From assembly GCA_000092065.1 (NCBI GenBank), contig CP000594.1: a stretch of 64,000 nucleotides of DNA; one strand, written 5' to 3'. The position numbers and the translations under genes are program-made. Origin of the DNA: Ostreococcus lucimarinus. Its lineage: Eukaryota. Below are positions 14,760-35,908 of this stretch, one piece after another (within the stretch, counting starts at the first letter, position 1; the number at the start of each line of letters is the position of its first letter). A model generated the notes under the pieces. That model did not search any database. It was not told the DNA's origin and saw only the letters and a list, made by a program, of their open reading frames with translations.

Positions 14760-15013
14760 GATGCTCAAAGCAGCAAAAATGACTTCCTACTACGGGCCAC
14801 ACAGGACGCCGAGCCCGATTTCTCTGTGCGTTCCGACCCCCCTTAACAGCGGACCCTTGGGTCTTAAGAAATTTCAACCTTTAAGGTTATAGGTTATATA
14901 GGTTATAGGTTTATTTATAAAGTTTACATGTGACGTTTTTTTTCAAAAATGGAAAAAAAAGTGACGGAGAGAAAGTTCCTCACAGGACCTCCAACCACTA
15001 AACCCATAACCGG

Positions 15014-15148: not shown

Positions 15149-15261
15149 AAAAATATCAACTTTTTTGTTTCAGTTGGGGCACCCCAACATGATAAAACGC
15201 TCATCGACGTTGATGTACCGCATGTACGATTTCTTCAGAACCAATCGTTCGAGTGAAGTGG

Positions 15262-15759: not shown

Positions 15760-15926
15760 TTGTCCTGGTTACCTGTCTATCCCTAAGAAAATATTGTTGT
15801 CAAAAGTCCTCCTGCTGCGGTTTGCAGTCGCATTCGAGAGACCGTATCGCTGCGTGGGCTGCAAGGTCTGGGATGTAGATATCGAACCGCCCGATTTCAC
15901 ACCTGGACGTTCGTGATCCGTCGAGA

Positions 15927-16117
15927 CCTGACGAAATGACGAACTTGTTTTGTCGTCCCGAAATTCGTCAGCCCGTCGTTCGGTCACACTTTGTGTGTAC
16001 CAATGATGAAAATGACGAAATGTTAAAATATTTTAATGTTTATTTTTATTTTAGATCTACGACAAGCAACAGTGTAGACCTTTATGAAAACAGTTCGTCA
16101 TTCGTCATTTCGTCAGG
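15927..16117. other. Iteron / inverted-repeat / AT-rich block between helicase and nuclease genes (candidate replication origin or bidirectional regulatory region)
   Basis: The heptamer TGACGAA occurs at 15929, 15937 and 16013, and its complement TTCGTCA at 15964, 16094, 16101 and 16109. An 18-bp inverted repeat brackets an AT-rich core (AATGATGAAAATGACGAAATGTTAAAATATTTTAATGTTTATTTTTATTTTAGATCT). Confidence 0.4.
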
Positions 16118-16182
16118 ATCCAAACCATGGTCTTTTCGGTGTCTTGTTGAGTCTTCATATTGCAAATGTACGAATCACAAAA

Positions 16183-18393: not shown

Positions 18394-18695
18394 ATAAGAA
18401 AAGAATTCTTTAAGCCGTGTTTTTCCTGGTCACATCGGCGCGATGACTGATTTTCAAGTTTTTCAACAGCCTGGAAAAGCACGCCAGCGCGCCCCACTGG
18501 TCAACGTTTTGCCACTTTTTCGACGAGATCGGGGTACTGCAAAGCACACGGCGAAGACCCGAGAGATCAGCAGATCGACGAACTCCGCAGTGAGCTCAGT
18601 GACATCGTGTCAAGACTGGAGGCGGTGGAGAGCGCCTAATCATCGTTTTTCTATATCGCGCCATTCGTGGACAACAAAATATACGTCCACATATA

Positions 18696-19691: not shown

Positions 19692-19719
19692 CGCGTGCGT
19701 CGATGAGTGGCGCCGACAC

Positions 19720-19751
<32 letters not shown>

Positions 19752-19753
19752 GC

Positions 19754-19780
<27 letters not shown>
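19754..19780 (-). promoter_or_regulatory. Conserved 27-nt 5' motif (reverse-strand copy)
   Basis: CGCTAAACCCTAGCAAAAATCGAGTTT is the exact reverse complement of the 27-mer at 5842 and 36494. The following leader resembles that of the 36586 gene up to the ATG. Confidence 0.6.
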
Positions 19781-19786
<6 letters not shown>

Positions 19787-19835
19787 TTGTCGATTTTTAA
19801 CACGTTTACAGTGGAACCTCTGCGGTTTTTGACGC

Positions 19836-19861
19836 CTAAACCCTAATTTCTAAACCCTAAT
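19836..19861. repeat. Two interstitial plant-type telomere-like units (CTAAACCCTAA x2)
   Basis: CTAAACCCTAATTTCTAAACCCTAAT lies directly adjacent to module R1 copy b. Confidence 0.6.
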
Positions 19862-20125
19862 GTGTAAATACGAGTACGACGTTTCATTAACCCATACGAG
19901 TACCCCCGAACGACGAGTCGTGACTCATACGGTAAAAATATCACGTCCCGCCGGTCCGGTCCCCATATACTATGGAATTTATGCTATTCAGCCCGCGCAA
20001 ACAGTCGGGTAGATTACTGTACAGTAATCTACCCGTATCTTACTGTACAGTAATCTGTGCGCGGAATCAGTAATCTGTACCCGGAATGACGCGGGATGTG
20101 GCGTAATCTATACCCGACATCCCGT
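19862..20125 (+). repeat. Intergenic module R1, copy b, with an expanded right part containing a 30-bp perfect palindrome
   Basis: The core matches 5690-5841. The right part holds four GTAATCT-containing units. CGGGTAGATTACTGTACAGTAATCTACCCG at 20006-20035 equals its own reverse complement. Confidence 0.65.
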
Positions 20126-20437
20126 GTTCTGTACACTGTGGGGCTTCAGGCCGCCGAGTATGATTAAGCCTATTTTGCATCACAATTGTCGGTCTACTCT
20201 TAACATTTGGCGGACTCGCGTTACATGCTATTCTGATCGAGTGGAATTTTCCATAGTTATTGTCCGTATGTTGAACGGCCCTCTCTTAAGATTGGGTGCG
20301 CATCTGAAGCGAGGCTTCCAGGATCTGAACAGTCGTGTACAGGTGGTTCGGTTAACGGCGTCTTCTGTACCCTCAGGTGGCGAACTTCATCTCCAAGATA
20401 TCAGGTTTTTGTGCCAAAACACACTCACTTCTTCGAC

Positions 20438-23400
20438 TCAACGGCTTGATTCCAAGGTCGAGCCGTAATCATACGCTCGCGAGCCTACGAACACCGCATC
20501 GCACTCGTTTATTGGCGCGCGTCGCGACTTACGACGTACAATCGCCACAAACGCAACAAAGGTAAACATCGCAAGGTACAGAGTTAATGTGAAGGGTCGA
20601 GGCGCCCCCAATCTGGCTCTCGACTGTTGCACGGCGTTACATTCGCACAGTTCCAATGCCTTGCTTCGTTGCTCGGCATTTTTCCAGTTACGCGTGAAGC
20701 TGACATTAAAGTTTGCGACTCCACGAAACATTTCGTCGACGTTCGCGTCAGCGCTCAATACCCACGAATTCAGATCTTGATTGAAACTTTTGGCGAAAGC
20801 AAACATCCGATGAAAGCTCTTGACGTTGGAGACGTTCCAATCGCTTAGGTTTTGATTGAAATTTCGATTGTACGCGAACATTTCTGACATGTCCGTAGCA
20901 GACGCCGTGTTCCACGCACTGATGATGGTCGCCGCCGTCGATCCAACGCCATTCAGACTATCGTAATGTGTTTGAAATAGACTTCTGAAATTCCTCACCT
21001 CACTTGTATCCACCATGTTTAGAGGCCCAAATCTACAACAGTAGCTGTACTTCGAGAAATTCGACCCCATGCAGTTACTCCGAGCTGACTCTTGGCTTCG
21101 GCAGGAGCGTATCACTTGGTATAAACTCGAACGATCGCCACGAAGTGGTGATAAACCTTGCGCCGTACCAGAATACGCAAAGAGATCTATAAACTGTTGA
21201 TGATCGCTTCGGTGAGTATTGACTTGTTTTTCCTTGATATTTTCGGCAAATGACGGCGAACGATAGCTTGGATTCAGAAAGTAGGTGGAATGGAACATCC
21301 CGTAAGCGGTCGTAACCGAGGAAACATCCCACGTCCACTTTCGCAAATCGCGCGAGAATGCGCGCGCGCCATTGAACATGTATTGCATGTTCTGAACTTT
21401 TTTCACGTTCCATGACGACAAATCCTGATCAAAACTTGTCGCATATTGAAACATTTTCACCATCGTCCCGACTTGCGCGACATTCCAAGATCCGATTGAC
21501 GCGTTGAAGTCTCTCCGATTTTGGAAAAGTTCATTCATGTTCGTTACCCTACTGACATCCCACGTCTCCATGGTCCCAAACTGTAAGTCTCGACACATAC
21601 CTCCGACGGGATCGACTTCCAAACATTTATCTATGATATCATCGATGTTGTCGTTATCGATGTGCTCCATAACTTTGGTTTCAGCGATTTTCGGTTTCCA
21701 ATTGCACGGGGGGCCATGTCTCATGTTCGACTTGCTGATTGAGACGAGTTTGAAATCGAACGAGCTCCGTCTGCCTCTTGCATAGTGACTGAACCATTTG
21801 GTAACGCGAACTTCGTCCTTCAATGCGTACTTCACCTTCCACGCGGCGGCGTTCAGGAACATGTCACCCACGATTGGCTGCAGAACGGTCGATTGCGACG
21901 TTGCGTGCTGGGCGAGACAAACGTACTCGCCTCGAACGGCAGCTTCGCCGCGGCCCCAATTTGTAATGTCGGCATCAAACATCCAAGCGTCGTCAAACAT
22001 TTTATAAAAGTCTGTGACTGATCTCACGTTCCAATCCCCCAAGTCTCCGTTAAATTTATAGGCGTTGGAAAACATCTGGTTCATGTCTTCAACCTGGGCG
22101 ACGTTCCAAAGTTTCAAAGAGCCCCGGAATCGACGCGCGCCGTAGAACATGCGGAACATACTCGTGACTGAAGCAACGTTCCAGTTTTCGATATTGCCAT
22201 TGAAGTCGCGTGCGCCCGAGAAGGCTTCAGACATATCGAACACACCTGAAGTATTCCAGGTTGACATCGCGCCATACTTGGAGTCGACGCAAGCGCCATC
22301 AGTGGGATGTGTCTCCAAACATTTGCCGACGGCGTACAAGAAATTACCTTGATGTACTTCGGCGAAGGTTGATGAATTCGTTGAGTTCTTGCTCGTTGTA
22401 GGCACGGTGCACTTAGCTGGCGAAGCACGATTTGGTTTCTTCGCCAACCCAACACAGTCGACATCACCATATATGGCGTGGCGACCATATTTCCCGTCTT
22501 TGTCGCGCCCCCACTTGTAGCCAATTTTCGTATTGTATTCCAGGCAAGTGCGCGGCTTGCAGGTCCACTTCGACACGGGACCAGAGAGAGACCACGTTCT
22601 TCTACGTTCGTGGCCTTCGCGCGTGCATGCCTCAAGCCAGGCCGTCGCAAGACCAAACATATTGGCACTCCCCAACCTGTCCAGACTCGCGGAATCCCAC
22701 TTGGAGATATCTTGCGCAAACTTCGACGCGCCGTAAAACATCCCCTCCATATTGTACACGTTGCGTACGTCCCAATTGCCAATGTCTTGATTGAAACTCG
22801 AAGCGCCTTGAAACATGCGCAACATAAATGTTACGGAACTCACATCCCAAGCAGATATATCGCCATCGAACTGGTCTCTGCCCTTAAATGCCTCGCGCAT
22901 GTCGGTGACTCGGCTTACGTCCCAGCCAGACATACATCCGTGTCTAAATCCAGAGCAGTCTCCGTACTTTGGGTCTTCACTCAAGCATTCTTCAATCGCA
23001 TCATAGAAGACAGCATTTTCAATGTTTACGTGCTTTCGTTTCCAAACAATCGGTGGTCCATCACTTTTCCCTCCGACGGCGAGAGGATCGCGATAAAACT
23101 CCATTTGAAACTCCGTGATGCCGTCGAACATCTTCGTCGAAACTTCCAACGAAGCCGTCGACCAAGAAGTGACATCAGGAAAGTCTGGGACCACTACTCT
23201 GGAAAACATCTCGCGCATGTTTTTCACTTTTCGCACATTCCAGTGCGATATCTCTGATGGGATCTTTCCAAAGCGAACGCCCTTGAACATCATTTCCATA
23301 CTTGTAGCCGAACTCGTGTCCCATGAAGCAAATCCTGAAGGCAAGCGGGTAGTGCGATATCGCGATGAAAACATGCTCCTAAAGTTCGTTATACCAATGG

Positions 23401-26400
23401 TGCGCATGTTGGATACATCGCAGGTCGTCGACACGGGTGAATTCAAACCAGAAAACATGGAATCAGCATCGACGTTTGATCCGAAACTCCATGAGATGTT
23501 GACATCCGTGCACTCAGAACCCTTCATCATTGCCTTGATATCATTGGCAGAGTCTAGTTTCCACGCGCTCGCTTGACGAAGAATGGGTGGTTTTGAGAAA
23601 GCAAACGCGGATTGCATCTTCTGAACTCGTTTAGGATCCCATTTGCCAAGACCGTCGATGGCGTCGTGACCAATCCGAGCAAATGCAAGCTCCATGCTCT
23701 TCACATTCCTCACGTCCCAAGAACCAATATCGCCGATGCGTCCTTGATTTGTCATTTTGAAGAATATTCCGTCCATGTTGGTGACCGAGGAGACATCCCA
23801 ATGTTTGAACATATTGTGCCAATCACGCCCCAGACCACTGAAGGTGAACCGCATGCTCCGCACGCTACTTACATTCCACGCACCCAAGTTACCAAAAGTC
23901 GCTCCCGGTAGAATGACCACAGTGCGTGGAACATCTAATCTGAAACGCGTTTCGGAATGCGAAGATGCCTTCCATTCTCCCGTATCATTGAAATACCGTT
24001 CTCCATATCTGAAAATGTGGTAATTATAGCGCTGCATGAACATTGCATCCATGTTCACGACTGAACTCGTGTTCCACTGTGACAAGTCGCCCACGTCGCC
24101 TTCAAAATCCTCAAACATCGCACCCATGTCCGTCACGGAGCTCACGTCCCATCTCGACAGGTCACGTGAAAAGTTGGGCGCGTCCTTGTATGCAGCACCA
24201 AACTCTCCAGGGCTTGCTTGAAAGAATTTCCATCGCAAACATACGTAGCCGAACGTTCGGTAATGTCCCGGAAACGCGGCTTGGTCAAACTGAAAGTGGT
24301 TAACAGTACCAATTTTGAACGCGTACGACATGTCGGTTACTCGCGAGACATCCCATTCTGACATCGGCCCGTATCTCAATTCGCATGTCGTTAAATTCTT
24401 TCTGCATGCGATGATCGCGGTATAGAAATCATCATCTGTACGAGTCAAGTTGAGTGGTTTGGATACCAGAGCGCTCAAAAGTCGGCGTCCAAGTGGAAGC
24501 CGAACAGGATCGTCGATACTTTTACCCAAACGTGCGCTGACGCTCATCGCCGGCGACTTGGCGGAGGTGAGCTCCTCTTCGAGCCTTCGCAGCTTGGCCC
24601 GCAAACCTACAAGCCCTCGGTTCCTCGGATTGCGAGCCTCGATCCGCGCAATTTTTGTGCGGAGCTTTGTCATTTCCGGCGTCGGGCTCGGTGGCGGCGG
24701 GCTCGGACTTGTCGACGGCGTGTCGCCGAAGAGCTCCTCTTCGAGCCTTCGCAGCTTGGCCCGCAAACCTACAAGCCCTCGGTTCCTCGGATTGCGAGCC
24801 TCGATCCGCGCAATTTTTGTGCGAAGCTTTGTCATTTCCGGCGTCGGGCTCGGTGGCGGCGGGCTCGGACTTGTCGACGGCGTGTCGCCGAAGAGCTCCT
24901 CTTCGAGCCTTCGCAGCTTGGCCCGCAAACCTACAAGCCCTCGGTTCCTCGGATTGCGAGCCTCGATCCGCGCAATTTTTGTGCGGAGGTTTGTCATTTC
25001 CGGCGTCGGGCTCGGTGGCGGCGGGCTCGGACTTGGTGTAGTCGTCAGATAATCGATCGATGAGCTCGGCGATTGACTCGGACTCGGCGAGCTCTTCTCT
25101 TCGTCAGCGTCCTCCTCTTCGTCAGCATGTTCGACTTCGTCTTTGTCTGCCTCTTCGTCCTCCTCTTCGTCTGCATTGTAAGGCGATGGACTCGGACTCG
25201 GCGAGCTCTTCTCTTCGTCAGCGTCCTCCTCTTCGTCAGCATGTTCGACTTCGTCTTTGTCTGCCTCTTCGTCCTCCTCTTCGTCTGCATTGTAAGGCGA
25301 TGGACTCGGACTCGGCGAGCTCTTCTCTTCGTCAGCGTCCTCCTCTTCGTCAGCATCTTCGACTTCGTCTTTGTCTGCCTCTTCGTCCTCCTCTTCATCT
25401 GCATTGTAAGGCGATGGACTCGGACTCGGCGAGCTCTTCTCTTCGTCAGCGTCCTCCTCTTCGTCAGCATGTTCGACTTCGTCTTTGTCTGCCTCTTCGT
25501 CCTCCTCTTCGTCAGCATTGTAAGGCGATGGACTCGGACTCGGCGAGCTCTTCTCTTCGTCAGCGTCCTCCTCTTCGTCAGCATGTTCGACTTCGTCTTT
25601 GTCTACCTCTTCGTCCTCCTCTTCGTCAGCATTGTAAGGCGATGGACTCGGACTCGGCGCACTTGCTTGTGCGTCGATACCTGTATATTCTGGTTCATCG
25701 GATGGCGTGTAGTTCTGAAATGGTTCATACGAATCTGTGGTTGTATTCGTTTTACTCGACGCAGCACGATGACCGATGGTATCCGCGTCGACCTCAAAAC
25801 TAAAATTGCCATTAAGACGGAAACTGGACTCCTTAGAGTCAAGAATTGCTTGGTCGTCGTCACTCACGGATACTTTATCGAGAATTTTGAGCGAATGTAT
25901 CGTTGGTAGCGGAGCACCTAGTACACTGCGGCGTACGTCATGAAGACGATCGCGAGTGGACAGCAAACGACGGTGACTTGGGCTCGTGGCAGTACACATC
26001 TTGAACAGTTTCTCGTCGTGCAATGACGAATATAGTACCTTTTTGCTTCGGGCGAGCACATCAAAGCTTGAAGTAAGTAGCGCGTCTAAATGACTCGGTA
26101 TACCAACGCCCCTCACGGACGTTAACAATTCAAACGAAGAAGCTCGTGGCGGTAAACTTTTCAGCTTTTCACGCCTCGCCCACGGGAGAGGCTTGGCAAG
26201 GTCTACCATTTCTTCCTCACCGTCTTCATTTTCGCATTTCCCATCGTCGTCGTAGACGCACATTTGACAGGTTGTCTCGTTGATGCTTGCTACATACTTG
26301 AGCGGTAGTTCGGGCAGTACAATATTCTGTAAAAAGCCAGTCACGTTTCCCACGATACTCAAACCCTGCTCTGAATCGGGATATTTCCCCCAGAAATTGA

Positions 26401-29400
26401 GCACCGGTTTGACGTGAAGATCCAGAAGGGTCCCGAATCGACTCTTCACATCACGCGCACCGTGGAAATTACTCTTTGATCGGTTCACCATGGCGTACAA
26501 AGGCCGAAGCGCATCTGTTGGCTCGACAAGTCGAGTTTCACATTCACCCCATGCCGCGCGAATCAAATCTTCGTACACATACGTCACATCCGATGTGTTG
26601 AACCATTGGCGTTTGCAATTATGATTCAGCGTGTGCAGCATCCATTTTCGCGCTTCGATATCGCAGAACGGCCGAGTAACTTGAATGACATCCTCCATGA
26701 GAATTTTGTGTATCTCTGGGTCCTCTTTGCATTTTAATGTCATAGATACTGAGCGTATCATCTTGTAGAATGTGCTCGGGTAATACATCGCGTGTGGGCG
26801 AAATACGGCGTACACACGCTTGATGAGGGTTTGATTCGTGATTGACGCCACGTCGATGTGGTTAATGAGCGTCTCCCAAGCCTCGATGTTGTGTGGATTC
26901 GATTCTAACGCTGAGAGTAAAATCGCACCGACGCGATCGACAACTTGAGCGCCAGCATCCATGTACACGTTCTGGAACAAAAGCATCGCCAAGCGCGTCT
27001 CAACGTACGAATCCAACCCTTTGCTTACCGCTCTTGAAAGTGCACGGACATGGTCGACGGAAACGATGGCATTCTTCTTCACACCTGGCGCGTTACGATG
27101 TTCCAAAATACTCAACGTCGTTCTCGCAAACGTCGAGTTGGTGGGCCAATGCAGTGGTACCGTACGCCACAAGCGCGAGAGTTCATCAAATTTAAAGCTA
27201 ATACCTCCAGGAATGGCTCCCCTCTTTTTGGAAACTTTCGTCGGGATCCCGAGACATGTTTGCATACCGATGGACAGATAAGCGATCATCGCGGCGTCAC
27301 CGCCGTCTTGAGCGATCCGTGGAAGAGAATTCGGGTGCCAGTTTGACGCCTTGCATAGAGTTTCCGCGCGTTCGGTGACGTTTGCGTGATTCAACCTCAA
27401 CCAAGTTGTATTGAGATTCCTTCTGCTGGCAATGTGCATGCATTCACTCGTTGGAAAGTGCGCACCAGCGTGCATGGCTACGACTGGCCACGGAATTCGA
27501 CCAAAATTCATCGCTCCGTTGACGTTTGCATTCAACGTGCTGTGCATGTAGTGAATTGCCTGGAGCGGACTCGGATTCAATTCTCGACTTCCTGGCATGG
27601 CCAATGTCCCATTTATGAGCTTCTTCCTGATTTCACAGACATCGCCGACTTCTTCATCCCGAGACTGATCCAAAAGCGTTGAAGTAGAGTCTGCGATGAA
27701 ATTCATATGACGATAATTGAAAGCTGTCGCAAGGATAGCATCGGATATGTTCGCGGCATCACCTCTAAAATAATTTGCCAAATATCGCACGTGATCCAAC
27801 GCTTTCATGTGCGTCGGCATCGTTAGACTATAAAGTGCTTTTCGAAACGAAACGCCTTGGCTTAACTTGGTGTGTTCTATCCATTCCCAAATAGGGTCGC
27901 TCTGCGGTATTCTCGTCAGCCGCTTGCTGAGACGCTCGTTGGATTCGAGAACTTGTTTTGAAAGCGCCTCACTCCAAGCACCCTTTGCATTTTGAACAGC
28001 AATCAAGAGCTCGTCTTGTGGAAACGCTGTGAGGAAACCACGACGCATAAATGTGTGCTCAGCAGAAATGTCCGAACGTGATAGAGAGGACAAATCAAAT
28101 TGAAGATGATGAATGAGCCGACACGTACCCGCGGCCGCAAACCCAATGAAGACGAATCCTGGGCACTTGGGCGTGTTCATACACAGAGAAGAGCACACAT
28201 CGACGGACACAGACACCGGCGACACTGGATAACTCGTCATCGTCATTTGCGGGAGGAGAACAAAATGAGTTGCAGCCGCTCGTCGCGCTGTGGTGTTCCA
28301 TGCGTGCGGTAAATCCATGATCGGTGTTGACCCTGAGACGCTGATTCTCGGCCGCGAGCCTTTAAACAGATTTGAGGAGCACCCTGTCTGTTGTTCCGAG
28401 GGTTTTGTCACGGGGTCGCAGACGACATCGCAATGCGCGTCTTCGTCATCCCTTCGAACACACTCTACGTCACGAATACGGATGCCGTTGATGCACGCGC
28501 CCCACGTAGTTTTCACGCGCCAGGACGCGCCTACACATCTGGGAATCTGAACATCGCAAGCGCCAGTTTCACCGCGTGTCCAACCATTCAAGCAGGTACA
28601 CTTGTAGTCGTAAGTCCAAGGTTTCGTGTCGTGATAATGTTTCTCACATGCGCCATTCGCGCACGACGTTGCGCCTCTTCTGGTTAAAGAGCAAGCTTGA
28701 GGAGGACACTCTTCACGCGTGTTGCAACTCCGAATACTTTCTGGCCTCGCGAGGGGACATAGAGCGCTTCTGGCGAGAGTCCCATTGGCATACGTACACG
28801 ATAACGATCTGACTTGAAAGGGCCGAGCGTCGTAGTCCAAAGTAGCACACTGTGCGCTGCACTCGCCATATGGCATACTGATCCAGTCAGCGTCGTCTCG
28901 TGGAGGCGGCGCGTAACATTCACGTTCGCGAAAATCTGTCATGATTACCCCGTCAGGTCGAGGGACAAAGCAACATCCATGATCTTCGCATACCAAAGCA
29001 CGAACTTCAGGGCTCGTGGAGCCCCGTCGATCATCGCTCTCGTAGCCAGCACACACCATTCTTCCGGAGTCTTGTCTACACTGCGCATCGCAATGGAAAT
29101 GATTACAGAATTCCTTTTCAGTAGGCTTTTCTGCGTGCGTACAGTGATCATCGGGCAGCGTTATATTTGTGCCTCTTTCGTCTTCGTGCGAGCACCAGAC
29201 CCTACGAATGCGCACTCCACCACCACACGATTTGGAACAAGAGGTAAAAGGGGAGGATTTCCAACGCACGAATTTGAGCTTTGTGAAGAAGCTTGACTGG
29301 ACGGAACTCACCACGAATTCGCGTAGGCCGTCGATCGTGACTGGGTGTTCGTACTCGACATTCGTGTACAACGTTGATCCAGATTCGCTCTCAATCGGCT

Positions 29401-32400
29401 TTGGTAAATCACTTCGTGAACGCACACCGTGAGGTTGTTCGGCGTCACCGCACGCAGATGACCATAAAGTACACTGTCCACTCGGCGAATATTCAGCCGC
29501 CGTGCACGAATTCTCTAGCGCGCATAGCGAAACGCATTCACTTGAAGAATTTGCATCTCGTGTCGCACCATTTCCAGTACAACGCTTCTTCAAGCATGAA
29601 CGAGAGAAAGTGCCATCCCGAACTAGGTCCGGCTCGGTAAATTCAATGGTCGCACACAATGGTATCACTTCACTAGGATTTTCCATCGGCGATCCGGACT
29701 TTTTAACTTGTCTTGTACCCCAAGTACCGTAGATTGGTGGGAGTGTGGGTATGACGTTATCCATCGCGCTCCAAAAGAAGCCAATCGCCACGCTATCAGC
29801 GTCGCACGCAAGATGATCGATATCGGAACTTTCCGGTATATCGTGCTCGGTGTAGTCCTTGACGCTGAATCCTGCCGGCACCCCGCATCGAGGCATGACA
29901 CCTGTAGTGTTTTCCGAAGATCCAAGAATGCCGGCAATACCGGTGAGGACTTGGCCGGGTGGACATAAAATACGAATCATACTTTCACCTCGATTGCGAT
30001 AGGCAGCGTTAACACTACGAGGTTTCCATCCATCGGTGTTGTAAATCTTGTTGCCTTGAGCGCTACCGCTTAAAACCTCTCCGGTAGTGGGATCAGTATA
30101 TCCATAGCCTGAAGTGAGGCTCAACGGGTGCGCCAACATACGCGATGTCATACCATGAATCTCCCCATTGAATCCAGGCCAATGTTGGAACTCTGTGTAT
30201 CTTTCGCTTGAAACGCACAAAGAGCTGCGAAGACGAAGTCGACACGTGCGGCGTAAGTGCTCAGAGCCAACGTTTAGGAATGGCACACCACTGGAAGTGC
30301 GATAACTTCCTCCAAAACGATTAACTCCATTGTCACCGAATGTGTTGGCCTTGGCCTGAAAAGCCATCCACAGCGAGTTGTCGCACGCAATCGCGTCCAC
30401 GGGCGCGTGCCAATCATCGGTGAGCATTTGAACTTCGCCACCCCTAAATCGTGTGTTATGCGATGCCTTCTCGCGTCCAAAAGGTCTGGTCCATTGCTCC
30501 TTGACTATAGCTTCGCATTCGCAGTAACCCCATCGGGAAAGCTTTTTGTTTGTGAAACAAGCTAGACGCGTACGATTTGGATCAATGTCTATAGAACACT
30601 GCGGATTAATCACGTCAGCGTTGCGTGGGTCTCTACTGAACATGACGTTACACGGAGCGCCATTCGCGTTTCCACCACAGGTTCGTCTCGGTTTCGCTTG
30701 ATACAGTCCCCCCTTAATTTTAGTGACGCTTCGAGGGGCGGCGCACTTTTGCGATTCGTCAAGCGATCCAGGAACATCATCTGATTCTGTGATGACAACC
30801 GAGACGTTTGCAAGTCGACCTCGGTTTTCTTCAGACGCGTACGGATATACAATAACTTTGGAAATGTCGACAACCCGACCAAGATCAATCATGAGGAAGT
30901 TTTGAGGGGTGTCCATCCGCATCGTGCTATAACGTTGCCATGTGCTATAACGTTGCCATGATATAGCACGATCGCTATATCCCGGTGATTTCTCCCCGTC
31001 GATGAGTGCAGGCCAATTTCCGGTTGCAGGCCAATTTCCGGTTCCGGTTGCGCTGATGGCAACATTCTCACCATTTTTGTCAATGATTTCCAATTCAGCA
31101 ATGTAGTAGCGGTACTCTCTACAACAAGAATTCCTCCAAGAGCTGCAGCAACTGTACGCGTACGTTTGATGATCTCCAGGTTTGACGTGCTTCCGCACGA
31201 TGACGTATCGTCCCCGTCCCCCCGCCACGGTGTAGTTGTCGTGAACGCCACTCAACTCACGAGTAACGCAGGGGGCATGAGTACGCATGTTCTCTTTGAC
31301 GCAGGAATCAAGCCCACTACGCCGTGGTATTTTTTCACTTGTTGAGCCGATGAACACGCCCCCCGTGGGAGGCGAGAAAGAGCCAGTTCGCTGGGCGGGA
31401 AGAAAATCGAATATTTGACCGTCTCCAGAATGCACGCTGTAATGACGGTCTTCGACGCCATCAATATGATCAGTTCGATCACCTTCAGCACGAAGGTATT
31501 CCAAATTGGAATTCCGCACGTATCGGCGCTGAGCCATTCCGTATGGTTTCCGACCAAACACGTGCATTGACATGAAGAAGTTCCGTAAACGTCTAAAGGA
31601 GACAGCAGAGACGTTGAAGAAATGAGCTCGGAATCCAGCCAGGCCCTCTGGAAGCTCTTGATCAAATCCAGCGGGAATTTGAATAACTCTGCGAGACGCA
31701 TACGTTTCATTTACCGAAGGATACCAATCCCAGTCTTCTCTTCGTGCAATTGTATCGAAATAAAATTCGTGCAAGGCTGATGGTACCTTGTGCAGAACGT
31801 AATTTTCACCACGTAGTCGACAGAACCGTTGAATAAGTCCGCGTTCGTCGACGCTGTCGGCGTGTACGAATTCGCCCTTGAGCCAAGAGTGAGGCATATG
31901 CGTTCTCAACTGCGACCCGTCGTGATTCATCTCATCGAGAGAAAGCGCGCTCGGACCGTAATCAAATCCGACGCACAGCGCATTCGCCTTGCAGCGTTGC
32001 GCGCAGAATTCCTTGAAGACCCCATGTTGACGCGAAACACTCGTCTTCGAGAGCGCAAAAGCCGGGTAGTGCGGAAGAACATCCGACATTGTGTATCGTT
32101 CCAACAAGTCTCCGCCAAAACCAATCACCCCGCTGGTGATTCGTCTATCCTTGATCACACCAGTCGCGTCCGGGCGCGTGACGCTCGTCTTGTAGATTTG
32201 AGTTTTCTCCGGAATCGACCCTGTCGTATAGCCCTGAAACCACGTCATGTCGCGAAGATCGATTTCGAAGATACCGAGATCGTGCCAGTTCGCAGCCTTC
32301 GAACACCGACTTGAGTCAGAGGCGTCGCATAAGCAAACGTGACCCCGGCGATCAACAAACGAGTCGCTCTTTTGGGCGCTCATATCCAACTCGAGATCGC

Positions 32401-35400
32401 GCCATTCCAAAAACGGGCGCATGGACGTCTCAATCTTTTGGTCGCGGGAATACAACTCTCCCGACAACAAGCCCGCACAAGTGGATTGGTTTACAGACTG
32501 GACTGAATCGACAGCACCGGGAAAGCACTGGCTCAAGGGATATCGACGTCGTTCAAATGTATCCGGCAAACCTTTGTCTCGTAGTCTTTGGAGAGCCTTT
32601 TTGTCGTACCTGTATGGTGCACGCATGCTGTACGACAAGTCCTCTTCGACGGGTCGGCCGACCGGCCGGACAATGTGATCACTTTGCCGAGCGAGCGTAG
32701 TCTCGGCCCAAATGGTGGTAGTATCGTCCCACGCGCCCATACATCCGACGTTGTCGCCCGCAAGCAGTCGTATCCATGCCTTGCGAGGTATTATGGACGT
32801 CCCACCTTCAACAAAGATCATATTCGTACGCTGACCAGAGAGCAGCCGCTTCGGCCCAAATCGTATCTGCTGCTCATCATATTTGGGAATACAAACGCTA
32901 GCCTTGTCGTCAAAACCATACTTGGCGCCGATCCGACGCGCGCATTGCAATCCGTAAGCGCACTGGTCGTCGCTCATGCAATGTCCTTCGTACGCCTGGC
33001 ATACCTCTCCACCTCCGAGACCTCCACAGTAGTCGTAGTCACCATTCGTGAGATTGAATCGAGCGTTGTAAGCTTCCTTGTTTTCAAAGTAGCCATCAGA
33101 GCCCGAAAAATCGGCGCAACACGCGTACGGGTGAATTTCACTCTCCAGCGCGCACTGCTTTCCAGGAAGTCCCCCTCGAGAAGCGACGAAATATCCTCTG
33201 TCTGTAGCGTTTCCACACGTTTCGTTTGTCCAATAATACTTGCCGACGATATTTGGATCTCCATAACGTCTGGGGTTGCCTCCCCATTGCGTTCGTACGT
33301 AGCTGAGATCACATGTGTCACCGAATGCAAACCCACCGACGACGCCGCTAAGAAGTTCGTTCGCTGAACACAGACGCGTGCCAGCCTGCGCACACTGTCG
33401 CATGGCAAAATGACGCGAGCCAATGCTCTTGCCGCTCACGCCAGGCAAATTTCCTCTCGCGACGTGTTCCATATCACTCAATGCCTTTTTACACTGCTCC
33501 GATTTCTTTGCGCTCGCATCTCGATCAAAGCATGCGGAAGTGTCCGGAGCCACGGCTCTGAAGCCAGGCGCGCCGCACGTGTCAGAGCCTTGCCTCAGCG
33601 CAAAATAGTTTTTGAAAGTGAATCCGTCGGGCTGCATTCCGCCTTCAAGCTTTTCACAGTTCCGTGTCACGTTACACTCATTGTAGCATATTTGCTCAAT
33701 CTCGGGTGGCCCATGACCAACCAATAAACCAATCCAACCGCTGGTATAGCGGCTAGAGTTTTTCGTCAAACTTGCCTTATCGTACGCAATAAGCCCTTGA
33801 GGATCATATGAATGCCAGTCCAAGTCGTATCGCTTCTCGCAGTAGTGAAGTGGCACCTCGCGCACGCAAGGATTTATCATATCACCAGCCGCAAAACACT
33901 TTACCTCCCGACGACGCGACACTGAGCATGTTTCAAAATCGGACGTCCAGTTCCGTGCGAGGCATGGCGACCATTCACCGATAGAGTAAAAATGATTATG
34001 TTGAAACACAATTCTGACAGTGTCATCGTCACCCGTTTTCAGCCTCAGGCCGTAATGCCATCCTTTCATTTGTGCATCCGCAGCGCCATTCACCATCACA
34101 GAAAGATCGCCCTCCAAATCACCAACGCCGTACTTTTTCTGAGTTTTAAAGTCGGTGAAACTCGCCACACAAATGGACTCTCGCCTATTGAAGTTAAACG
34201 AGTTGCAAGCCATGTTGCGAGTTGGACCTTTTTTTAGCGAATCACAGAGCGCAATACACTCTGCCATAGTGAAGGCGGCGCTGCTCTCGATCGCAATGGC
34301 TGGTACGTACTTTTCCGGGTACAAGCGATAATTGTCCTTCATTTTGTTGTCAAATCGACTGCACGCTCCTCGATTACTTCCGAGCATCGCGGATCCAACA
34401 GTATGCGTACAGGGTCCAAGTTTCGTGTCACCTCTGCAGCATGAGCGACCACACTGTGTGACTACGTTGGTCTTCGTGCGAGGCGCCATAGTCCCAGTGA
34501 TTGTATTTCTTCTCTCAGGGCACTGTAAACGGTTCCATTCCAAGTGTATCGAAAGTCTTCCGCCGACGATGGGGTCAATACATCCAGTGTCATCAATCTC
34601 GTTGCCATGATAACACTCGTGACCGGTCAGATTCTTGGCGAAATCAAAGCAGCACCCGTAATCATGGCACGCGCGCGCGCGAGAATCAATGGACATGAAC
34701 TCACTTCGAACGTCGCCGTAGTACGCCGTACACTTGAAACGATCTTCCATTTTAAGCGCACAATCAGCTTTACAAGAGTGGGTGTTACACTCTCGAGAAG
34801 TCTGTGGTAAAACACCACAGATGTGATCTTGGAGCTGCTCGCCGGATGTGGTGTTGACGCAAATCGCGCTCCGCGTTTGTCCACCTCGCTCGCACTTTCG
34901 CGAACAGTTACTCCATTCGCTAATTTCCCATCGGAATCCAAGTGGGTCTTCACCGTAACAATCAGCGTAGCCCCACAAGCCAGGCTTGGAGGTGTAGCAC
35001 CAAGGTCTCGTGGAAGGCTCGGCCGGCGCACGACCCACAAGGGTTGGTTCAAAGAATTCAACGACTGTCTGCCTTTGACGCGCGTTATAGTCGGTGGTAA
35101 AGGGAAAGACGCACGGCGCGCCACCAGCTGTACCTTCACACGTCGGTATCGCTCTTGAATGCACGACAAAATCTGCATCATTGAGCATCGAAGAGCCATC
35201 GGTGACGCTCTTGAGCAACATCGCGCTCGTCGTCGACACATCAAACGGACGCGTTGTCGAAAGTCCAAGCGTGTCGTGCTTTTTGTACATCCGCGCGGCA
35301 CAGTCCGTCGTGTTTATGCACGTATAATACCCTTGGCATTGGGAATCGCTTGCACAAAGCGTTCGTAGCCCAGTCTCTGATTTCCCGTTCACCGCGCGCC

Positions 35401-35908
35401 AAGCGAGAAGATCTGGAAACGCAACCATTTTCCCCTTGTGCGCCTTCCACTTGGCCTTGGAGTGCACACTCTTCTTGCGATAAAAATCACTCTCCGCCGC
35501 TCGTTGTAACCCGAATCCGCGACCGACCAAAGTACAGAAGTCCGTGGTCAGATCCTTCTTGAAACCCGCGCAGGCGAACCCTTTCGCGTCGCACTCGCGT
35601 TCACACGCGTCGAAAGACTCATAAGTCTCCATCAGGTTACTCCCGACTGGAATGCGGCTTCCGTGCCACCAATAATTTGTTAAATCATCCTCCAACGACC
35701 CAAGAGCGGCTTCGGGAACGTTCACGCCCGCTTTTTTCATGGCGCGCCCCAAGCGTCCTTCGGGAACGCACCAAGCATATGCCGTTCGACCGTGAATTCC
35801 GATTAACACGAACGTAGCGACGAGGATGAACGCGGCCGAGTTCCACCCAATCCATCTATCGCGCGTTCTTGTTCTTCTCGTCGTCATCGGTGCGTCAACG
35901 CCCGTCAT
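20438..35908 (-). CDS. Giant mosaic surface protein, 5,156 aa (signal anchor; PAN/Apple, TSP1, trefoil-like, FN2-like, EGF-like and discoidin-like modules; acidic and coiled-coil tandem repeats; DUF285/BspA-like LRRs; C-terminal TM anchor)
   Basis: 15.5-kb uninterrupted ATG ORF.
- TSP1 signatures include WSNCSRKCERGGQTRSAIC and CSKSCGGGVRIRRVWC.
- Trefoil-like signatures include C..R..C......C.DYGCCFD and C.DHGCCF.
- There are several PAN-like Cys patterns.
- The C-terminal third is full of W(D/N)VSxVTxMxxMF units.
- The C-terminal TM segment is LYLAMFTFVAFVAIV. Confidence 0.9.
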   Translation of the reverse strand: MTGVDAPMTTRRTRTRDRWIGWNSAAFILVATFVLIGIHGRTAYAWCVPEGRLGRAMKKAGVNVPEAALGSLEDDLTNYWWHGSRIPVGSNLMETYESFDACERECDAKGFACAGFKKDLTTDFCTLVGRGFGLQRAAESDFYRKKSVHSKAKWKAHKGKMVAFPDLLAWRAVNGKSETGLRTLCASDSQCQGYYTCINTTDCAARMYKKHDTLGLSTTRPFDVSTTSAMLLKSVTDGSSMLNDADFVVHSRAIPTCEGTAGGAPCVFPFTTDYNARQRQTVVEFFEPTLVGRAPAEPSTRPWCYTSKPGLWGYADCYGEDPLGFRWEISEWSNCSRKCERGGQTRSAICVNTTSGEQLQDHICGVLPQTSRECNTHSCKADCALKMEDRFKCTAYYGDVRSEFMSIDSRARACHDYGCCFDFAKNLTGHECYHGNEIDDTGCIDPIVGGRLSIHLEWNRLQCPERRNTITGTMAPRTKTNVVTQCGRSCCRGDTKLGPCTHTVGSAMLGSNRGACSRFDNKMKDNYRLYPEKYVPAIAIESSAAFTMAECIALCDSLKKGPTRNMACNSFNFNRRESICVASFTDFKTQKKYGVGDLEGDLSVMVNGAADAQMKGWHYGLRLKTGDDDTVRIVFQHNHFYSIGEWSPCLARNWTSDFETCSVSRRREVKCFAAGDMINPCVREVPLHYCEKRYDLDWHSYDPQGLIAYDKASLTKNSSRYTSGWIGLLVGHGPPEIEQICYNECNVTRNCEKLEGGMQPDGFTFKNYFALRQGSDTCGAPGFRAVAPDTSACFDRDASAKKSEQCKKALSDMEHVARGNLPGVSGKSIGSRHFAMRQCAQAGTRLCSANELLSGVVGGFAFGDTCDLSYVRTQWGGNPRRYGDPNIVGKYYWTNETCGNATDRGYFVASRGGLPGKQCALESEIHPYACCADFSGSDGYFENKEAYNARFNLTNGDYDYCGGLGGGEVCQAYEGHCMSDDQCAYGLQCARRIGAKYGFDDKASVCIPKYDEQQIRFGPKRLLSGQRTNMIFVEGGTSIIPRKAWIRLLAGDNVGCMGAWDDTTTIWAETTLARQSDHIVRPVGRPVEEDLSYSMRAPYRYDKKALQRLRDKGLPDTFERRRYPLSQCFPGAVDSVQSVNQSTCAGLLSGELYSRDQKIETSMRPFLEWRDLELDMSAQKSDSFVDRRGHVCLCDASDSSRCSKAANWHDLGIFEIDLRDMTWFQGYTTGSIPEKTQIYKTSVTRPDATGVIKDRRITSGVIGFGGDLLERYTMSDVLPHYPAFALSKTSVSRQHGVFKEFCAQRCKANALCVGFDYGPSALSLDEMNHDGSQLRTHMPHSWLKGEFVHADSVDERGLIQRFCRLRGENYVLHKVPSALHEFYFDTIARREDWDWYPSVNETYASRRVIQIPAGFDQELPEGLAGFRAHFFNVSAVSFRRLRNFFMSMHVFGRKPYGMAQRRYVRNSNLEYLRAEGDRTDHIDGVEDRHYSVHSGDGQIFDFLPAQRTGSFSPPTGGVFIGSTSEKIPRRSGLDSCVKENMRTHAPCVTRELSGVHDNYTVAGGRGRYVIVRKHVKPGDHQTYAYSCCSSWRNSCCREYRYYIAELEIIDKNGENVAISATGTGNWPATGNWPALIDGEKSPGYSDRAISWQRYSTWQRYSTMRMDTPQNFLMIDLGRVVDISKVIVYPYASEENRGRLANVSVVITESDDVPGSLDESQKCAAPRSVTKIKGGLYQAKPRRTCGGNANGAPCNVMFSRDPRNADVINPQCSIDIDPNRTRLACFTNKKLSRWGYCECEAIVKEQWTRPFGREKASHNTRFRGGEVQMLTDDWHAPVDAIACDNSLWMAFQAKANTFGDNGVNRFGGSYRTSSGVPFLNVGSEHLRRTCRLRLRSSLCVSSERYTEFQHWPGFNGEIHGMTSRMLAHPLSLTSGYGYTDPTTGEVLSGSAQGNKIYNTDGWKPRSVNAAYRNRGESMIRILCPPGQVLTGIAGILGSSENTTGVMPRCGVPAGFSVKDYTEHDIPESSDIDHLACDADSVAIGFFWSAMDNVIPTLPPIYGTWGTRQVKKSGSPMENPSEVIPLCATIEFTEPDLVRDGTFSRSCLKKRCTGNGATRDANSSSECVSLCALENSCTAAEYSPSGQCTLWSSACGDAEQPHGVRSRSDLPKPIESESGSTLYTNVEYEHPVTIDGLREFVVSSVQSSFFTKLKFVRWKSSPFTSCSKSCGGGVRIRRVWCSHEDERGTNITLPDDHCTHAEKPTEKEFCNHFHCDAQCRQDSGRMVCAGYESDDRRGSTSPEVRALVCEDHGCCFVPRPDGVIMTDFRERECYAPPPRDDADWISMPYGECSAQCATLDYDARPFQVRSLSCTYANGTLARSALCPLARPESIRSCNTREECPPQACSLTRRGATSCANGACEKHYHDTKPWTYDYKCTCLNGWTRGETGACDVQIPRCVGASWRVKTTWGACINGIRIRDVECVRRDDEDAHCDVVCDPVTKPSEQQTGCSSNLFKGSRPRISVSGSTPIMDLPHAWNTTARRAAATHFVLLPQMTMTSYPVSPVSVSVDVCSSLCMNTPKCPGFVFIGFAAAGTCRLIHHLQFDLSSLSRSDISAEHTFMRRGFLTAFPQDELLIAVQNAKGAWSEALSKQVLESNERLSKRLTRIPQSDPIWEWIEHTKLSQGVSFRKALYSLTMPTHMKALDHVRYLANYFRGDAANISDAILATAFNYRHMNFIADSTSTLLDQSRDEEVGDVCEIRKKLINGTLAMPGSRELNPSPLQAIHYMHSTLNANVNGAMNFGRIPWPVVAMHAGAHFPTSECMHIASRRNLNTTWLRLNHANVTERAETLCKASNWHPNSLPRIAQDGGDAAMIAYLSIGMQTCLGIPTKVSKKRGAIPGGISFKFDELSRLWRTVPLHWPTNSTFARTTLSILEHRNAPGVKKNAIVSVDHVRALSRAVSKGLDSYVETRLAMLLFQNVYMDAGAQVVDRVGAILLSALESNPHNIEAWETLINHIDVASITNQTLIKRVYAVFRPHAMYYPSTFYKMIRSVSMTLKCKEDPEIHKILMEDVIQVTRPFCDIEARKWMLHTLNHNCKRQWFNTSDVTYVYEDLIRAAWGECETRLVEPTDALRPLYAMVNRSKSNFHGARDVKSRFGTLLDLHVKPVLNFWGKYPDSEQGLSIVGNVTGFLQNIVLPELPLKYVASINETTCQMCVYDDDGKCENEDGEEEMVDLAKPLPWARREKLKSLPPRASSFELLTSVRGVGIPSHLDALLTSSFDVLARSKKVLYSSLHDEKLFKMCTATSPSHRRLLSTRDRLHDVRRSVLGAPLPTIHSLKILDKVSVSDDDQAILDSKESSFRLNGNFSFEVDADTIGHRAASSKTNTTTDSYEPFQNYTPSDEPEYTGIDAQASAPSPSPSPYNADEEEDEEVDKDEVEHADEEEDADEEKSSPSPSPSPYNADEEEDEEADKDEVEHADEEEDADEEKSSPSPSPSPYNADEEEDEEADKDEVEDADEEEDADEEKSSPSPSPSPYNADEEEDEEADKDEVEHADEEEDADEEKSSPSPSPSPYNADEEEDEEADKDEVEHADEEEDADEEKSSPSPSQSPSSSIDYLTTTPSPSPPPPSPTPEMTNLRTKIARIEARNPRNRGLVGLRAKLRRLEEELFGDTPSTSPSPPPPSPTPEMTKLRTKIARIEARNPRNRGLVGLRAKLRRLEEELFGDTPSTSPSPPPPSPTPEMTKLRTKIARIEARNPRNRGLVGLRAKLRRLEEELTSAKSPAMSVSARLGKSIDDPVRLPLGRRLLSALVSKPLNLTRTDDDFYTAIIACRKNLTTCELRYGPMSEWDVSRVTDMSYAFKIGTVNHFQFDQAAFPGHYRTFGYVCLRWKFFQASPGEFGAAYKDAPNFSRDLSRWDVSSVTDMGAMFEDFEGDVGDLSQWNTSSVVNMDAMFMQRYNYHIFRYGERYFNDTGEWKASSHSETRFRLDVPRTVVILPGATFGNLGAWNVSSVRSMRFTFSGLGRDWHNMFKHWDVSSVTNMDGIFFKMTNQGRIGDIGSWDVRNVKSMELAFARIGHDAIDGLGKWDPKRVQKMQSAFAFSKPPILRQASAWKLDSANDIKAMMKGSECTDVNISWSFGSNVDADSMFSGLNSPVSTTCDVSNMRTIGITNFRSMFSSRYRTTRLPSGFASWDTSSATSMEMMFKGVRFGKIPSEISHWNVRKVKNMREMFSRVVVPDFPDVTSWSTASLEVSTKMFDGITEFQMEFYRDPLAVGGKSDGPPIVWKRKHVNIENAVFYDAIEECLSEDPKYGDCSGFRHGCMSGWDVSRVTDMREAFKGRDQFDGDISAWDVSSVTFMLRMFQGASSFNQDIGNWDVRNVYNMEGMFYGASKFAQDISKWDSASLDRLGSANMFGLATAWLEACTREGHERRRTWSLSGPVSKWTCKPRTCLEYNTKIGYKWGRDKDGKYGRHAIYGDVDCVGLAKKPNRASPAKCTVPTTSKNSTNSSTFAEVHQGNFLYAVGKCLETHPTDGACVDSKYGAMSTWNTSGVFDMSEAFSGARDFNGNIENWNVASVTSMFRMFYGARRFRGSLKLWNVAQVEDMNQMFSNAYKFNGDLGDWNVRSVTDFYKMFDDAWMFDADITNWGRGEAAVRGEYVCLAQHATSQSTVLQPIVGDMFLNAAAWKVKYALKDEVRVTKWFSHYARGRRSSFDFKLVSISKSNMRHGPPCNWKPKIAETKVMEHIDNDNIDDIIDKCLEVDPVGGMCRDLQFGTMETWDVSRVTNMNELFQNRRDFNASIGSWNVAQVGTMVKMFQYATSFDQDLSSWNVKKVQNMQYMFNGARAFSRDLRKWTWDVSSVTTAYGMFHSTYFLNPSYRSPSFAENIKEKQVNTHRSDHQQFIDLFAYSGTAQGLSPLRGDRSSLYQVIRSCRSQESARSNCMGSNFSKYSYCCRFGPLNMVDTSEVRNFRSLFQTHYDSLNGVGSTAATIISAWNTASATDMSEMFAYNRNFNQNLSDWNVSNVKSFHRMFAFAKSFNQDLNSWVLSADANVDEMFRGVANFNVSFTRNWKNAEQRSKALELCECNAVQQSRARLGAPRPFTLTLYLAMFTFVAFVAIVRRKSRRAPINECDAVFVGSRAYDYGSTLESSR
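24569..25040 (-). repeat. About 3 x 162-bp in-frame tandem repeat (54-aa unit TPSTSPSPPPPSPTPEMTKLRTKIARIEARNPRNRGLVGLRAKLRRLEEELFGD)
   Basis: Units start at 24569, 24731 and 24893 and are almost identical at the nucleotide level. Confidence 0.9.
25094..25663 (-). repeat. 5 x 114-bp in-frame tandem repeat (38-aa acidic unit SSPSPSPSPYNADEEEDEEADKDEVEHADEEEDADEEK)
   Basis: 114-bp periodicity (for example ATGGACTCGG at 25186 and 25300), with only single substitutions between units. Confidence 0.9.
30924..30959 (-). repeat. Perfect 2 x 18-bp in-frame micro-duplication (WQRYST x2)
   Basis: GTGCTATAACGTTGCCAT occurs at 30924-30941 and 30942-30959. Confidence 0.9.
31018..31053 (-). repeat. Perfect 2 x 18-bp in-frame micro-duplication (GNWPAT x2)
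   Basis: GCAGGCCAATTTCCGGTT occurs at 31018-31035 and 31036-31053. Confidence 0.9.

Follow-up and report, generated by a model that had tools for sequence, protein, structure and literature searches.

The apicomplexan micronemal adhesins (TRAP/MIC2, MIC4, and the EGF MICs) are type I membrane proteins of protists that combine TSP1, PAN/apple, and EGF-type modules, and the cytoplasmic tails of the TRAP family bear an acidic, Trp-terminated motif. SwmB of Synechococcus is a giant surface protein encoded in a hypervariable island, and the sexual agglutinins of Chlamydomonas are hydroxyproline-rich. PARCEL/DUF285 repeats, known from surface proteins such as the lipoproteins of Mollicutes, have also been catalogued in Ostreococcus and Micromonas (Roske et al., 2010; PMC2996958). 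Here we describe a giant gene at positions 20438..35908 (minus strand) of a 64,000-nucleotide stretch, hereafter the window, of contig CP000594.1 (assembly GCA_000092065.1), from the 708,927-bp chromosome of Ostreococcus lucimarinus CCE9901. We place at about 0.6 the probability that this is one functional gene for a giant type I membrane glycoprotein with an adhesion or recognition role at the cell surface. The role is suggested by analogy, because TSP1, PAN/apple, kringle, and PARCEL surface proteins have established ligand-binding roles. The adhesion-type architecture proposed in an earlier interpretation of the same DNA (the sequence-only reading) is supported by domains and topology alike, which together describe a secreted, membrane-anchored mosaic.

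The giant protein shares with the apicomplexan adhesins the combination of TSP1, PAN/apple, and EGF-type modules in a protist type I membrane protein; however, it is 5-10 times larger, has no vWA domain and no overall homology to them, adds kringle/FN2-like, trefoil-like, and TPR-containing domains as well as PARCEL arrays, and has a tail without the TRAP-family motif. Its C-terminal ~1,250 amino acids (aa) are bona fide PARCEL repeats, but here the arrays form only the membrane-proximal quarter, and the remaining 3,800 aa, a eukaryotic mosaic rich in Cys, are not mentioned in the accessible part of PMC2996958, which treats PARCEL repeats only. As with the giants of marine-bacterial islands such as SwmB, a very large, repeat-rich surface protein appears to be encoded in a strain-variable locus of a planktonic cell, and the (SP)n linkers of the giant protein recall the hydroxyproline-rich sexual agglutinins of Chlamydomonas and green-algal hydroxyproline-rich glycoproteins in general; neither likeness extends to a sequence relationship.

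The coding sequence is a single uninterrupted frame of 15,471 nt, ATG-initiated and with no internal stop (5,156 codons plus the stop), just as the sequence-only reading had it, apart from the strand, which had been left unstated. A chance origin is excluded, because at ~51% GC the probability of such a frame is (61/64)^5156 ~ e^-247. Three environmental copies were available for comparison. A YOSH21 scaffold (L009) matches window positions 27099-25606 at 99.5% and 24711-20045 at 98.5%, with the frame open apart from an N gap, and a BATS20 scaffold (L010) matches 32590-26146 at 93.4% and 24212-20431 at 94%, with the frame open apart from N gaps and one contig-join artefact. The third copy lies at 8354-24319 of a 231-kb JGI contig (L011) and matches window 35989-20045 at 98.3%, with about 8 frameshifting indels. 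A stop in L010 falls 84 nt before a scaffold gap, within 146 nt that match nothing, at a 10-N join where the contig ends overlap by ~40 nt, and on these features it looks like an assembly artefact.

Selection was estimated by the Nei-Gojobori method between the window and L010 (93-94% DNA identity), with ~3,400 codons compared and dS of 0.08-0.17. The ratio dN/dS was 0.23 for aa 1107-1540, 0.61 for aa 1541-1725, 0.43 for aa 1726-2100, 0.12 both for the TSP1/trefoil/PAN cluster (aa 2101-2620) and for the helical domain (aa 2621-3254), and 0.37 for the PARCEL part; over the whole of the compared core (aa 1107-3254) it was 0.27. Relative to L011 the ratio was 0.41. Judged from these sequence comparisons, the gene is real and selectively maintained under purifying selection. 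The description of the protein as fast-evolving thus does not fit dN/dS values of 0.12-0.61, and only aa 1541-2100 and the stalk repeats described below are relaxed or variable.

Kyte-Doolittle analysis found two hydrophobic segments only, at aa ~20-43 and aa 5106-5124. The first belongs to a signal peptide or signal anchor (aa 1-44; 35777..35908, minus strand, as are all features of the gene given below) with an Arg-rich N-region and a hydrophobic core that peaks at 2.02 over aa 20-38. A signal anchor had been proposed; the N-terminal signal sequence is confirmed, but, given the terminal AYA|W of the segment and the classical signal peptide of a relative, it is no less likely to be a cleaved signal peptide than an anchor. 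The predicted C-terminal anchor was borne out as a transmembrane helix at aa 5106-5124 (20537..20593; Kyte-Doolittle 2.29), followed by RRKSRR and a short tail of 32 aa (aa 5125-5156; 20441..20536), predicted to be cytoplasmic by the positive-inside rule. A C-terminal helix of this kind is shared by the family, since a 3,247-aa paralog likewise terminates in a coiled-coil-like segment and a transmembrane helix. These features fit a type I membrane protein with a putative ectodomain of ~5,060 aa and a 32-aa tail.

The distal part of the protein contains a series of Cys-rich modules. PF19030 (TSP1) scored 73.5 bits against a cutoff of 23.8 in 4 stretches, with motifs of the WxxW/CSxxCG type and conserved cysteines (WSNCSRKCERGGQTR and FTSCSKSCGGGVRIR) that are invariant across 5 relatives in the alignment. 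The repeats lie at aa 327-379 (34772..34930; E 6.3e-8, 33.2 bits), aa 2216-2273 (29090..29263; the best stretch covering profile positions 1-55 of 55), aa 2340-2402 (28703..28891; one of 3 PF19030 stretches in aa 2001-2600, and alignment), and aa 2456-2511 (28376..28543; PF19030 stretch at aa 2471-2510, and alignment). The TSP1 identity proposed earlier is therefore upheld, but the count of at least five comes down to four. A fifth candidate at aa ~640-690 was rejected for want of a Pfam match in the giant protein, as was a PAN-like pattern at aa ~1300-1365. For the several PAN/apple-like patterns that had been noted, Pfam supports three domains, and these only just at threshold, with PF00024 scoring a marginal 22.2-28.3 bits at three sites against a gathering cutoff of 21.4: aa 527-588 (34145..34330; 19.7-22.8 bits), aa 2115-2152 (29453..29566; 22.2 bits, E 1.2e-4), and aa 2557-2612 (28073..28240; 22.2-22.8 bits, with PAN_4 at 19.6 bits). 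An environmental paralog has a PAN_1 match of 40-42 bits at residues 562-595, which corresponds to aa 527-588 by position, not by alignment. A further PAN/apple-like Cys module at the N-terminus is weak (aa 95-135; 35504..35626); it had no Pfam match, and the sole solved-structure match of its family profile (A9) was to the apple domains of T. gondii MIC4, at E 0.29.

Two kringle/FN2-like modules with the pattern CVFPF...WCYT...WGYxDC occur at aa 255-318 (34955..35146) and aa 1742-1799 (30512..30685), the first identified by its family profile (A4) and the second by the A4 alignment and the search with its profile. This profile, built from 10 copies in five family members, matched solved structures of HGF (1.7e-11), plasminogen (3.1e-11), MMP-9 (6.9e-5), plasminogen kringle 2 (4.7e-4), and fibronectin FN2 (4.9e-4), with E values ranging up to 1e-3 overall. 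Pfam itself gave no Kringle match and only a subthreshold fn2 match (11.7 bits against 22.2, over 7 profile positions only), so that the FN2/kringle-like segments of the sequence-only reading stand on the family profile but not on the Pfam models. The reference disulfide patterns call for six Cys in kringles and four in FN2, one of the latter following the aromatic cluster. Copy 1 contains four Cys but does not conserve the position of the second FN2 Cys, and copy 2 carries extra Cys.

Directly after the first and second TSP1 repeats lie the two GCCF segments that had been noticed as trefoil-like. For both, Pfam Trefoil was the best or only match, but both scored below the cutoff of 21 bits: aa 379-436 (34601..34774; PF00088 E 0.011, 16.0 bits, profile positions 1-42 of 43) and aa 2272-2334 (28907..29095; E 0.0094, 16.2 bits). 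The corresponding score in the paralog was 16.5-18.0 bits, and the only three solved-structure matches of the family profile (A3) were trefoil domains (GAA/MGAM), at E 0.5-2.7. A six-Cys pattern with adjacent CC, R-x-x-C-G, and GCC[FW] is present and conserved in 10 copies, with a C2-C3 loop of ~20 residues, compared with a canonical trefoil spacing that we take to be ~9. Together these data are suggestive of trefoil identity.

Two other units named earlier fell below threshold, namely a weak EGF-like unit (aa 2400-2452; 28553..28711; PF00008 E 0.12) and a discoidin/F5-8C-like segment at about aa 1541-1725 (30734..31288) or, in another delimitation, aa ~1510-1722, where partial-coverage matches reached 21.3 bits against 27.8 for PF22633 (E 4e-4) and 17.0 against 28.2 for PF00754. 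The latter is an insertion, missing as an alignment gap from four relatives (P0061, P0062, P0063, and P0197). It contains two perfect 18-nt tandem microduplications (30924-30960 and 31007-31043 by TRF; WQRYST and NWPATG, each twice), neither of which occurs in L011, and both are therefore recent in CCE9901. A copy from the adjacent tectonin/F5-8C gene was considered as the source of the insertion and rejected, as there is no similarity between them. In sequence searches against solved structures, aa 735-1010 gave nothing significant (a LYVE-1 Link domain only, at E 0.23) and aa 1800-2100 had no match.

The region at aa 2615-3230 (26219..28066), described earlier as ~700 aa of helix with no recognizable motif, indeed has no Pfam match, but profiles, alignment, and an AlphaFold2 (AF2) model resolve it into an alpha/beta domain followed by TPR-like repeats. 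A profile built from five family members retrieved 210 representatives at E <= 1e-3, many of them 500-750 aa long and unmatched in Pfam. The motifs DGG[VL]C and QPxH are present in 16 of 18 aligned sequences (with Gly after DGG[VL]C in 15 of these 16), and the two exceptions are the PARCEL-fused giants, the CCE9901 protein and P0197. The former has DGGDAAM and KKRGAIPG at the motif sites, so that Cys is replaced by Ala and His by Gly; P0197 likewise has neither motif, and P0063 retains DGGLCG and QPQH. Among the ~200 domain representatives (P0232-P0348) we also observed conserved DGGVCGR and QPGH motifs followed by a TPR-like NPYNxEAW repeat, and at least some of the stand-alone proteins are probably bacterial, because one adjoins a purE-type gene on a short contig (L013).

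In sequence searches against solved structures, the helical region alone gave nothing significant, there was no match to any solved transglutaminase-like chain, and the part behind the DGG/QPxH motifs matched TPR consensus proteins. An AF2 model of aa 2615-3230 from 5 sequences was poor (pLDDT 49) and returned only weak TPR matches in Foldseek. A model of aa 2801-3036 from the 18-sequence alignment reached pLDDT 76, and in it a helix begins with the Cys-equivalent residue A2872; beta-strands come next, and long helices after them. The top Foldseek matches of this model include menin, TgpA, and PNGase, all non-significant (E 0.29-5.5). Transglutaminase-like proteins with TPR repeats would, on this model, resemble the relatives in having a Cys at a helix N-terminus and a His before a beta-strand, with TPR-like helices behind, but differ in that the fold matches are non-significant, there is no sequence match, and Cys and His are Ala and Gly in the giant protein. 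We tentatively assign the region, on the model, to a transglutaminase- or papain-like fold with TPR repeats, at somewhat less than even odds for the fold. As both the catalytic Cys and His of such enzymes are missing, we read the putative Cys-His domain as catalytically dead in the CCE9901 giant protein.

Behind this region, the protein continues into a stalk of tandem repeats, which had been recognized as acidic and coiled-coil repeats and was confirmed by TRF. An array of 5.2 x 114 nt (25068..25659; 98% matches) encodes 38-aa acidic units flanked by (SP)n tracts (SPSPSPSP and PSPSPPPPSPTP), and one of 2.9 x 162 nt (24569..25035; 99% matches) encodes 54-aa units in which a Pro/Ser-rich linker is joined to a basic helical segment. 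The array differs in every copy compared: 5 acidic and 3 helical units in CCE9901, 3 long and 2 short acidic units with 4 helical units in L011, and a different (DA)n/(EEEDA)n array in L010. The stalk is followed by PARCEL/DUF285 arrays in about five blocks (aa ~3840-5090; 20639..24391), where PF03382 scored 543 bits (cutoff 25) in 8 stretches, TIGR02167 (the NCBIfam PARCEL model) scored 138 bits (cutoff 30), and a motif count found at least 19 canonical W[DN]xSxVxxM units among tandem units of ~25 aa. The ~1,200 aa of DUF285/BspA-type leucine-rich repeats in the sequence-only reading are thereby confirmed at ~1,250 aa. A sequence search of the PARCEL blocks against solved structures gave no match, and the possibility that they are a recent duplicate of the neighboring PARCEL gene was rejected at an identity of only 24-28%.

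The core upstream of the stalk belongs to a family of giant proteins. It is collinear over aa 67-3265 with P0061, P0062, P0063, and P0197, at ~28-38% identity and with many invariant Cys, and relatives of 3,200-5,350 aa, intact in several taxa, occur in Ostreococcus- and Micromonas-type genomes and on two marine metagenome contigs. One of them, P0063, is collinear with aa ~76-3132 at ~30% identity, carries TSP1 and PAN, and falls in the same 90% cluster as XP_003058792.1 of M. pusilla CCMP1545 (MICPUCDRAFT_47261, a "predicted protein" of 3,986 aa). The Micromonas protein shares, through P0063 of its cluster, the core with its TSP1 and PAN modules but differs from the CCE9901 protein in having no PARCEL arrays, in the intact motifs of P0063, and in its housekeeping neighborhood of photolyase, RRM, eIF3, and aspartyl-protease genes. 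In Ostreococcus-type members the core is joined to PARCEL arrays, and P0197 (5,351 aa, 37% identical) has the same order of core, PARCEL arrays, and C-terminal hydrophobic anchor as the CCE9901 protein; the fusion is therefore not an artefact of assembly or strain and is ancient in the Ostreococcus-like lineage. Accordingly, a protein that had been called unusual for a picoalga is in its ~3,200-aa core a member of a conserved family that includes an annotated M. pusilla protein, with the fusion itself kept at 37% identity. The genes of relatives, too, have a lower GC content than the DNA flanking them (0.50-0.53 versus 0.64 on L007; 0.61-0.67 versus 0.70 on L005), and low GC is therefore partly a property of core-family genes, which weakens its use as a sign of an accessory region.

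A word-indexed homology search with aa 1-2650 found 3 distant matches and missed the near-identical partial products on L010 and L011; absence of a match in that search was therefore not taken as absence in nature. We found no description of the core family in an exact-word search of full-text literature lying mostly outside subscription journals. The giant core proteins are an undescribed family, of which only the PARCEL part is already catalogued in the accessible part of PMC2996958.

The gene lies in a variable, low-GC setting. GC is 0.49-0.55 over window positions 1-50 kb and 0.54-0.71 in the remainder, and the block is adjacent to repeated mobile-element-like copies, in agreement with what had been noted. 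At 50001-64000 GC rises to as much as 0.71 (56-58 kb) and ordinary genes begin, such as that for a MIF4G-domain protein (60206-62617), marking the edge of the low-GC block. Within this ~50-kb stretch lie three giant genes whose domains are of a surface type. Besides the gene described here, they are a second PARCEL/DUF285 giant at 5890-12597 (plus strand; 2,235 aa, 1,409 bits in 13 stretches, internal 75- and 150-nt periodic repeats), which is probably XP_001421294.1, and a gene at 36586-42996 (plus strand; XP_001421296.1, 2,136 aa) with tectonin, F5/8 type C, and beta/gamma-crystallin matches. The latter is oriented divergently with respect to the giant gene, from which 677 nt separate it, and no signal peptide is obvious at its first ATG. 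The giant genes are bracketed by three ~97%-identical element copies of 3.4-3.8 kb (1667-5474, 15194-18558, and 43555-47116), the element encoding two proteins, one of them primase-helicase-like and 733 aa long (DUF5906; phage NrS-1 primase, E 1e-12) and the other a GIY-YIG protein (XP_001421478.1). An internal rearrangement distinguishes copy 1, whose open reading frame (ORF) is truncated. No relatives of the DUF5906 protein were found in IMG/VR.

The view that the locus varies between strains was confirmed, as near-identical haplotypes differ in their flanks, in the upstream giant gene, and in the stalk repeats. Downstream, L009 and L011 both depart from the window exactly at 20045, beyond which L009 runs through 3.4 kb of unrelated sequence into the 5' end of the other PARCEL gene, whose relative orientation is reversed. 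Upstream, L011 and L014 (a haplotype ~98% identical to the window) depart at 35989, and where CCE9901 has the tectonin gene they have the 3,247-aa core-family paralog, head-to-head with the giant gene (563-10306 on the minus strand of L014; 2-8119 of L011). This paralog is 28% identical to the giant protein, has TSP1 and PAN, keeps DGGICGR and QPKH, and is without PARCEL repeats. The initial 428 nt of L014 correspond, at 92-93% identity, to window 51277-51162 joined directly to 43416-43093, and because this junction connects 51162 to 43416 the haplotype seems to be without ~7.7 kb (43417-51161), comprising element copy 3, a ferritin gene (47685-48542), and a 596-aa gene. For ferritin, the NCBI model covers only part (180 aa) of a 285-aa ORF. 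Intergenic repeats of 100-160 nt and 83-90% identity (5671-5828/19864-20021; 5715-5817/36249-36351; 47181-47321/48868-49008) stand at the ends of giant genes and flank the ferritin gene on either side, and the copies at 5671-5828 and 19864-20021 are within a few tens of bases of haplotype breakpoints (~5825 and 20045).

If the gene encodes a single adhesion-type protein, that protein would project from the naked cell surface with its parts in a fixed order: a distal Cys-rich mosaic of PAN/apple, kringle/FN2-like, TSP1, trefoil-like, and EGF-like modules with a lineage-specific discoidin-like insert and unmatched stretches; an alpha/beta domain with TPR-like repeats that would have lost its conserved Cys and His; a repeat stalk of (SP)n, acidic, and helical units; and a membrane-proximal PARCEL/DUF285 solenoid of ~1,250 aa ahead of the transmembrane helix and the 32-aa tail. 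By analogy, the distal lectin-type modules would bind glycan or protein ligands on other cells or particles, and variation in stalk length may set the reach of the protein. Several observations weigh against this interpretation. To our knowledge, no ligand, partner, or phenotype has been described for any core-family member, and ~1,500 aa of the core had no match in either the Pfam or the solved-structure searches. By exact look-up, the 5,156-aa product is absent from a collection of 15 billion proteins, which means that the NCBI gene model cannot be identical to the full ORF; the order of accessions along the minus strand makes XP_001421477.1 the most likely model (the ORFs at 36586-42993 and 43266-44075 being XP_001421296.1 and XP_001421478.1). 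The ~8 frameshifting indels of L011, each of 1-2 nt, may be either assembly indel errors or very recent decay in some genotypes. Finally, dS relative to L011 is ~0.01 for aa 1-3270 and ~0.07 for aa 3271-5156, so the two halves of the protein have partly separate, mosaic histories.

This difference in dS is one reason to ask whether the locus comprises two units, a core gene ending at about aa 3270 and a PARCEL gene, expressed or processed separately, with the ORF being a recent read-through fusion or its product being cleaved. Relatives without PARCEL repeats cease to align at aa ~3265, gene callers split the environmental copies into a PARCEL protein of 1,423-1,473 aa and an upstream piece, the L010 stop lies near the core/PARCEL junction, and in the accessible part of the 2010 catalogue XP_001421477.1 was entered with only 11 repeats (Roske et al., 2010; PMC2996958). 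However, the frame is continuous in both the window and L009, the L010 stop looks like an assembly artefact, P0197 retains the fusion at 37% identity, and the two hydrophobic segments lie one at each end, so that a separate PARCEL protein would have no signal sequence of its own; we consider this account quite improbable. That the gene is instead a relic of a variable region, silent or in decay, whose frame has stayed open in CCE9901 only because inactivation was recent, would agree with the L011 frameshifts, with the low-GC DNA among repeated mobile-element-like copies, and with neighboring genes that are present, absent, or rearranged between haplotypes. It is very improbable given dN/dS of 0.12-0.6 over ~3,400 codons at dS 0.08-0.17, an ORF open in three genotypes, a ratio of 0.41 rather than ~1 even relative to L011, and intact relatives of 3,200-5,350 aa in several taxa.

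The variability of the locus can also be read as the outcome of conflict, in which the main role of the protein is that of a target or decoy toward viruses or grazers (a prasinovirus receptor, decoy, or surface shield), the conflict driving gene replacement from strain to strain in the way proposed for the hypervariable islands of marine bacteria. The occupation of one position by either a tectonin/F5-8C gene (CCE9901) or a core-family paralog (L011 and L014), the hypervariable stalk repeats, the raised dN/dS in aa 1541-2100, and the concentration of two PARCEL giants and a tectonin/F5-8C giant in ~50 kb all point in this direction. Nevertheless, nothing links the protein directly to a virus or grazer, purifying selection acts on most of its length, and the Micromonas member sits in an ordinary conserved neighborhood, which makes conflict improbable as the main role. 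Finally, an account that joins several of these elements, which we offer as an unlikely but coherent one, would cast the locus as a eukaryotic equivalent of the hypervariable islands that encode surface proteins in marine bacteria. Core paralogs, PARCEL genes, and tectonin/discoidin genes would be swapped between near-identical haplotypes, perhaps with the help of the primase-helicase/GIY-YIG elements and the intergenic repeats. Virus, grazer, or mate recognition would be the driver, and an extracellular Cys-His enzyme domain would have become a module for binding only upon fusion of the core to PARCEL arrays. We favor, as stated at the outset, one functional gene for a giant membrane protein with an adhesion or recognition role.

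We know of no account of how these algae recognize mates, viruses, or bacteria. In Ostreococcus, whose naked cells measure ~1 µm and whose genome is minimal, the outlay of 15.5 kb on one surface protein implies an important interaction with cells, viruses, or particles. The present analysis delineates a family of giant membrane proteins that occurs in Ostreococcus- and Micromonas-type genomes, and indicates that kringle-like and probably trefoil-like modules exist in green picoalgae, and that an alpha/beta-plus-TPR domain without a Pfam match has ~200 database relatives. The replacement of surface genes at the strain level makes this locus a concrete candidate through which virus resistance, sex, and grazing could be studied in marine picoeukaryotes.

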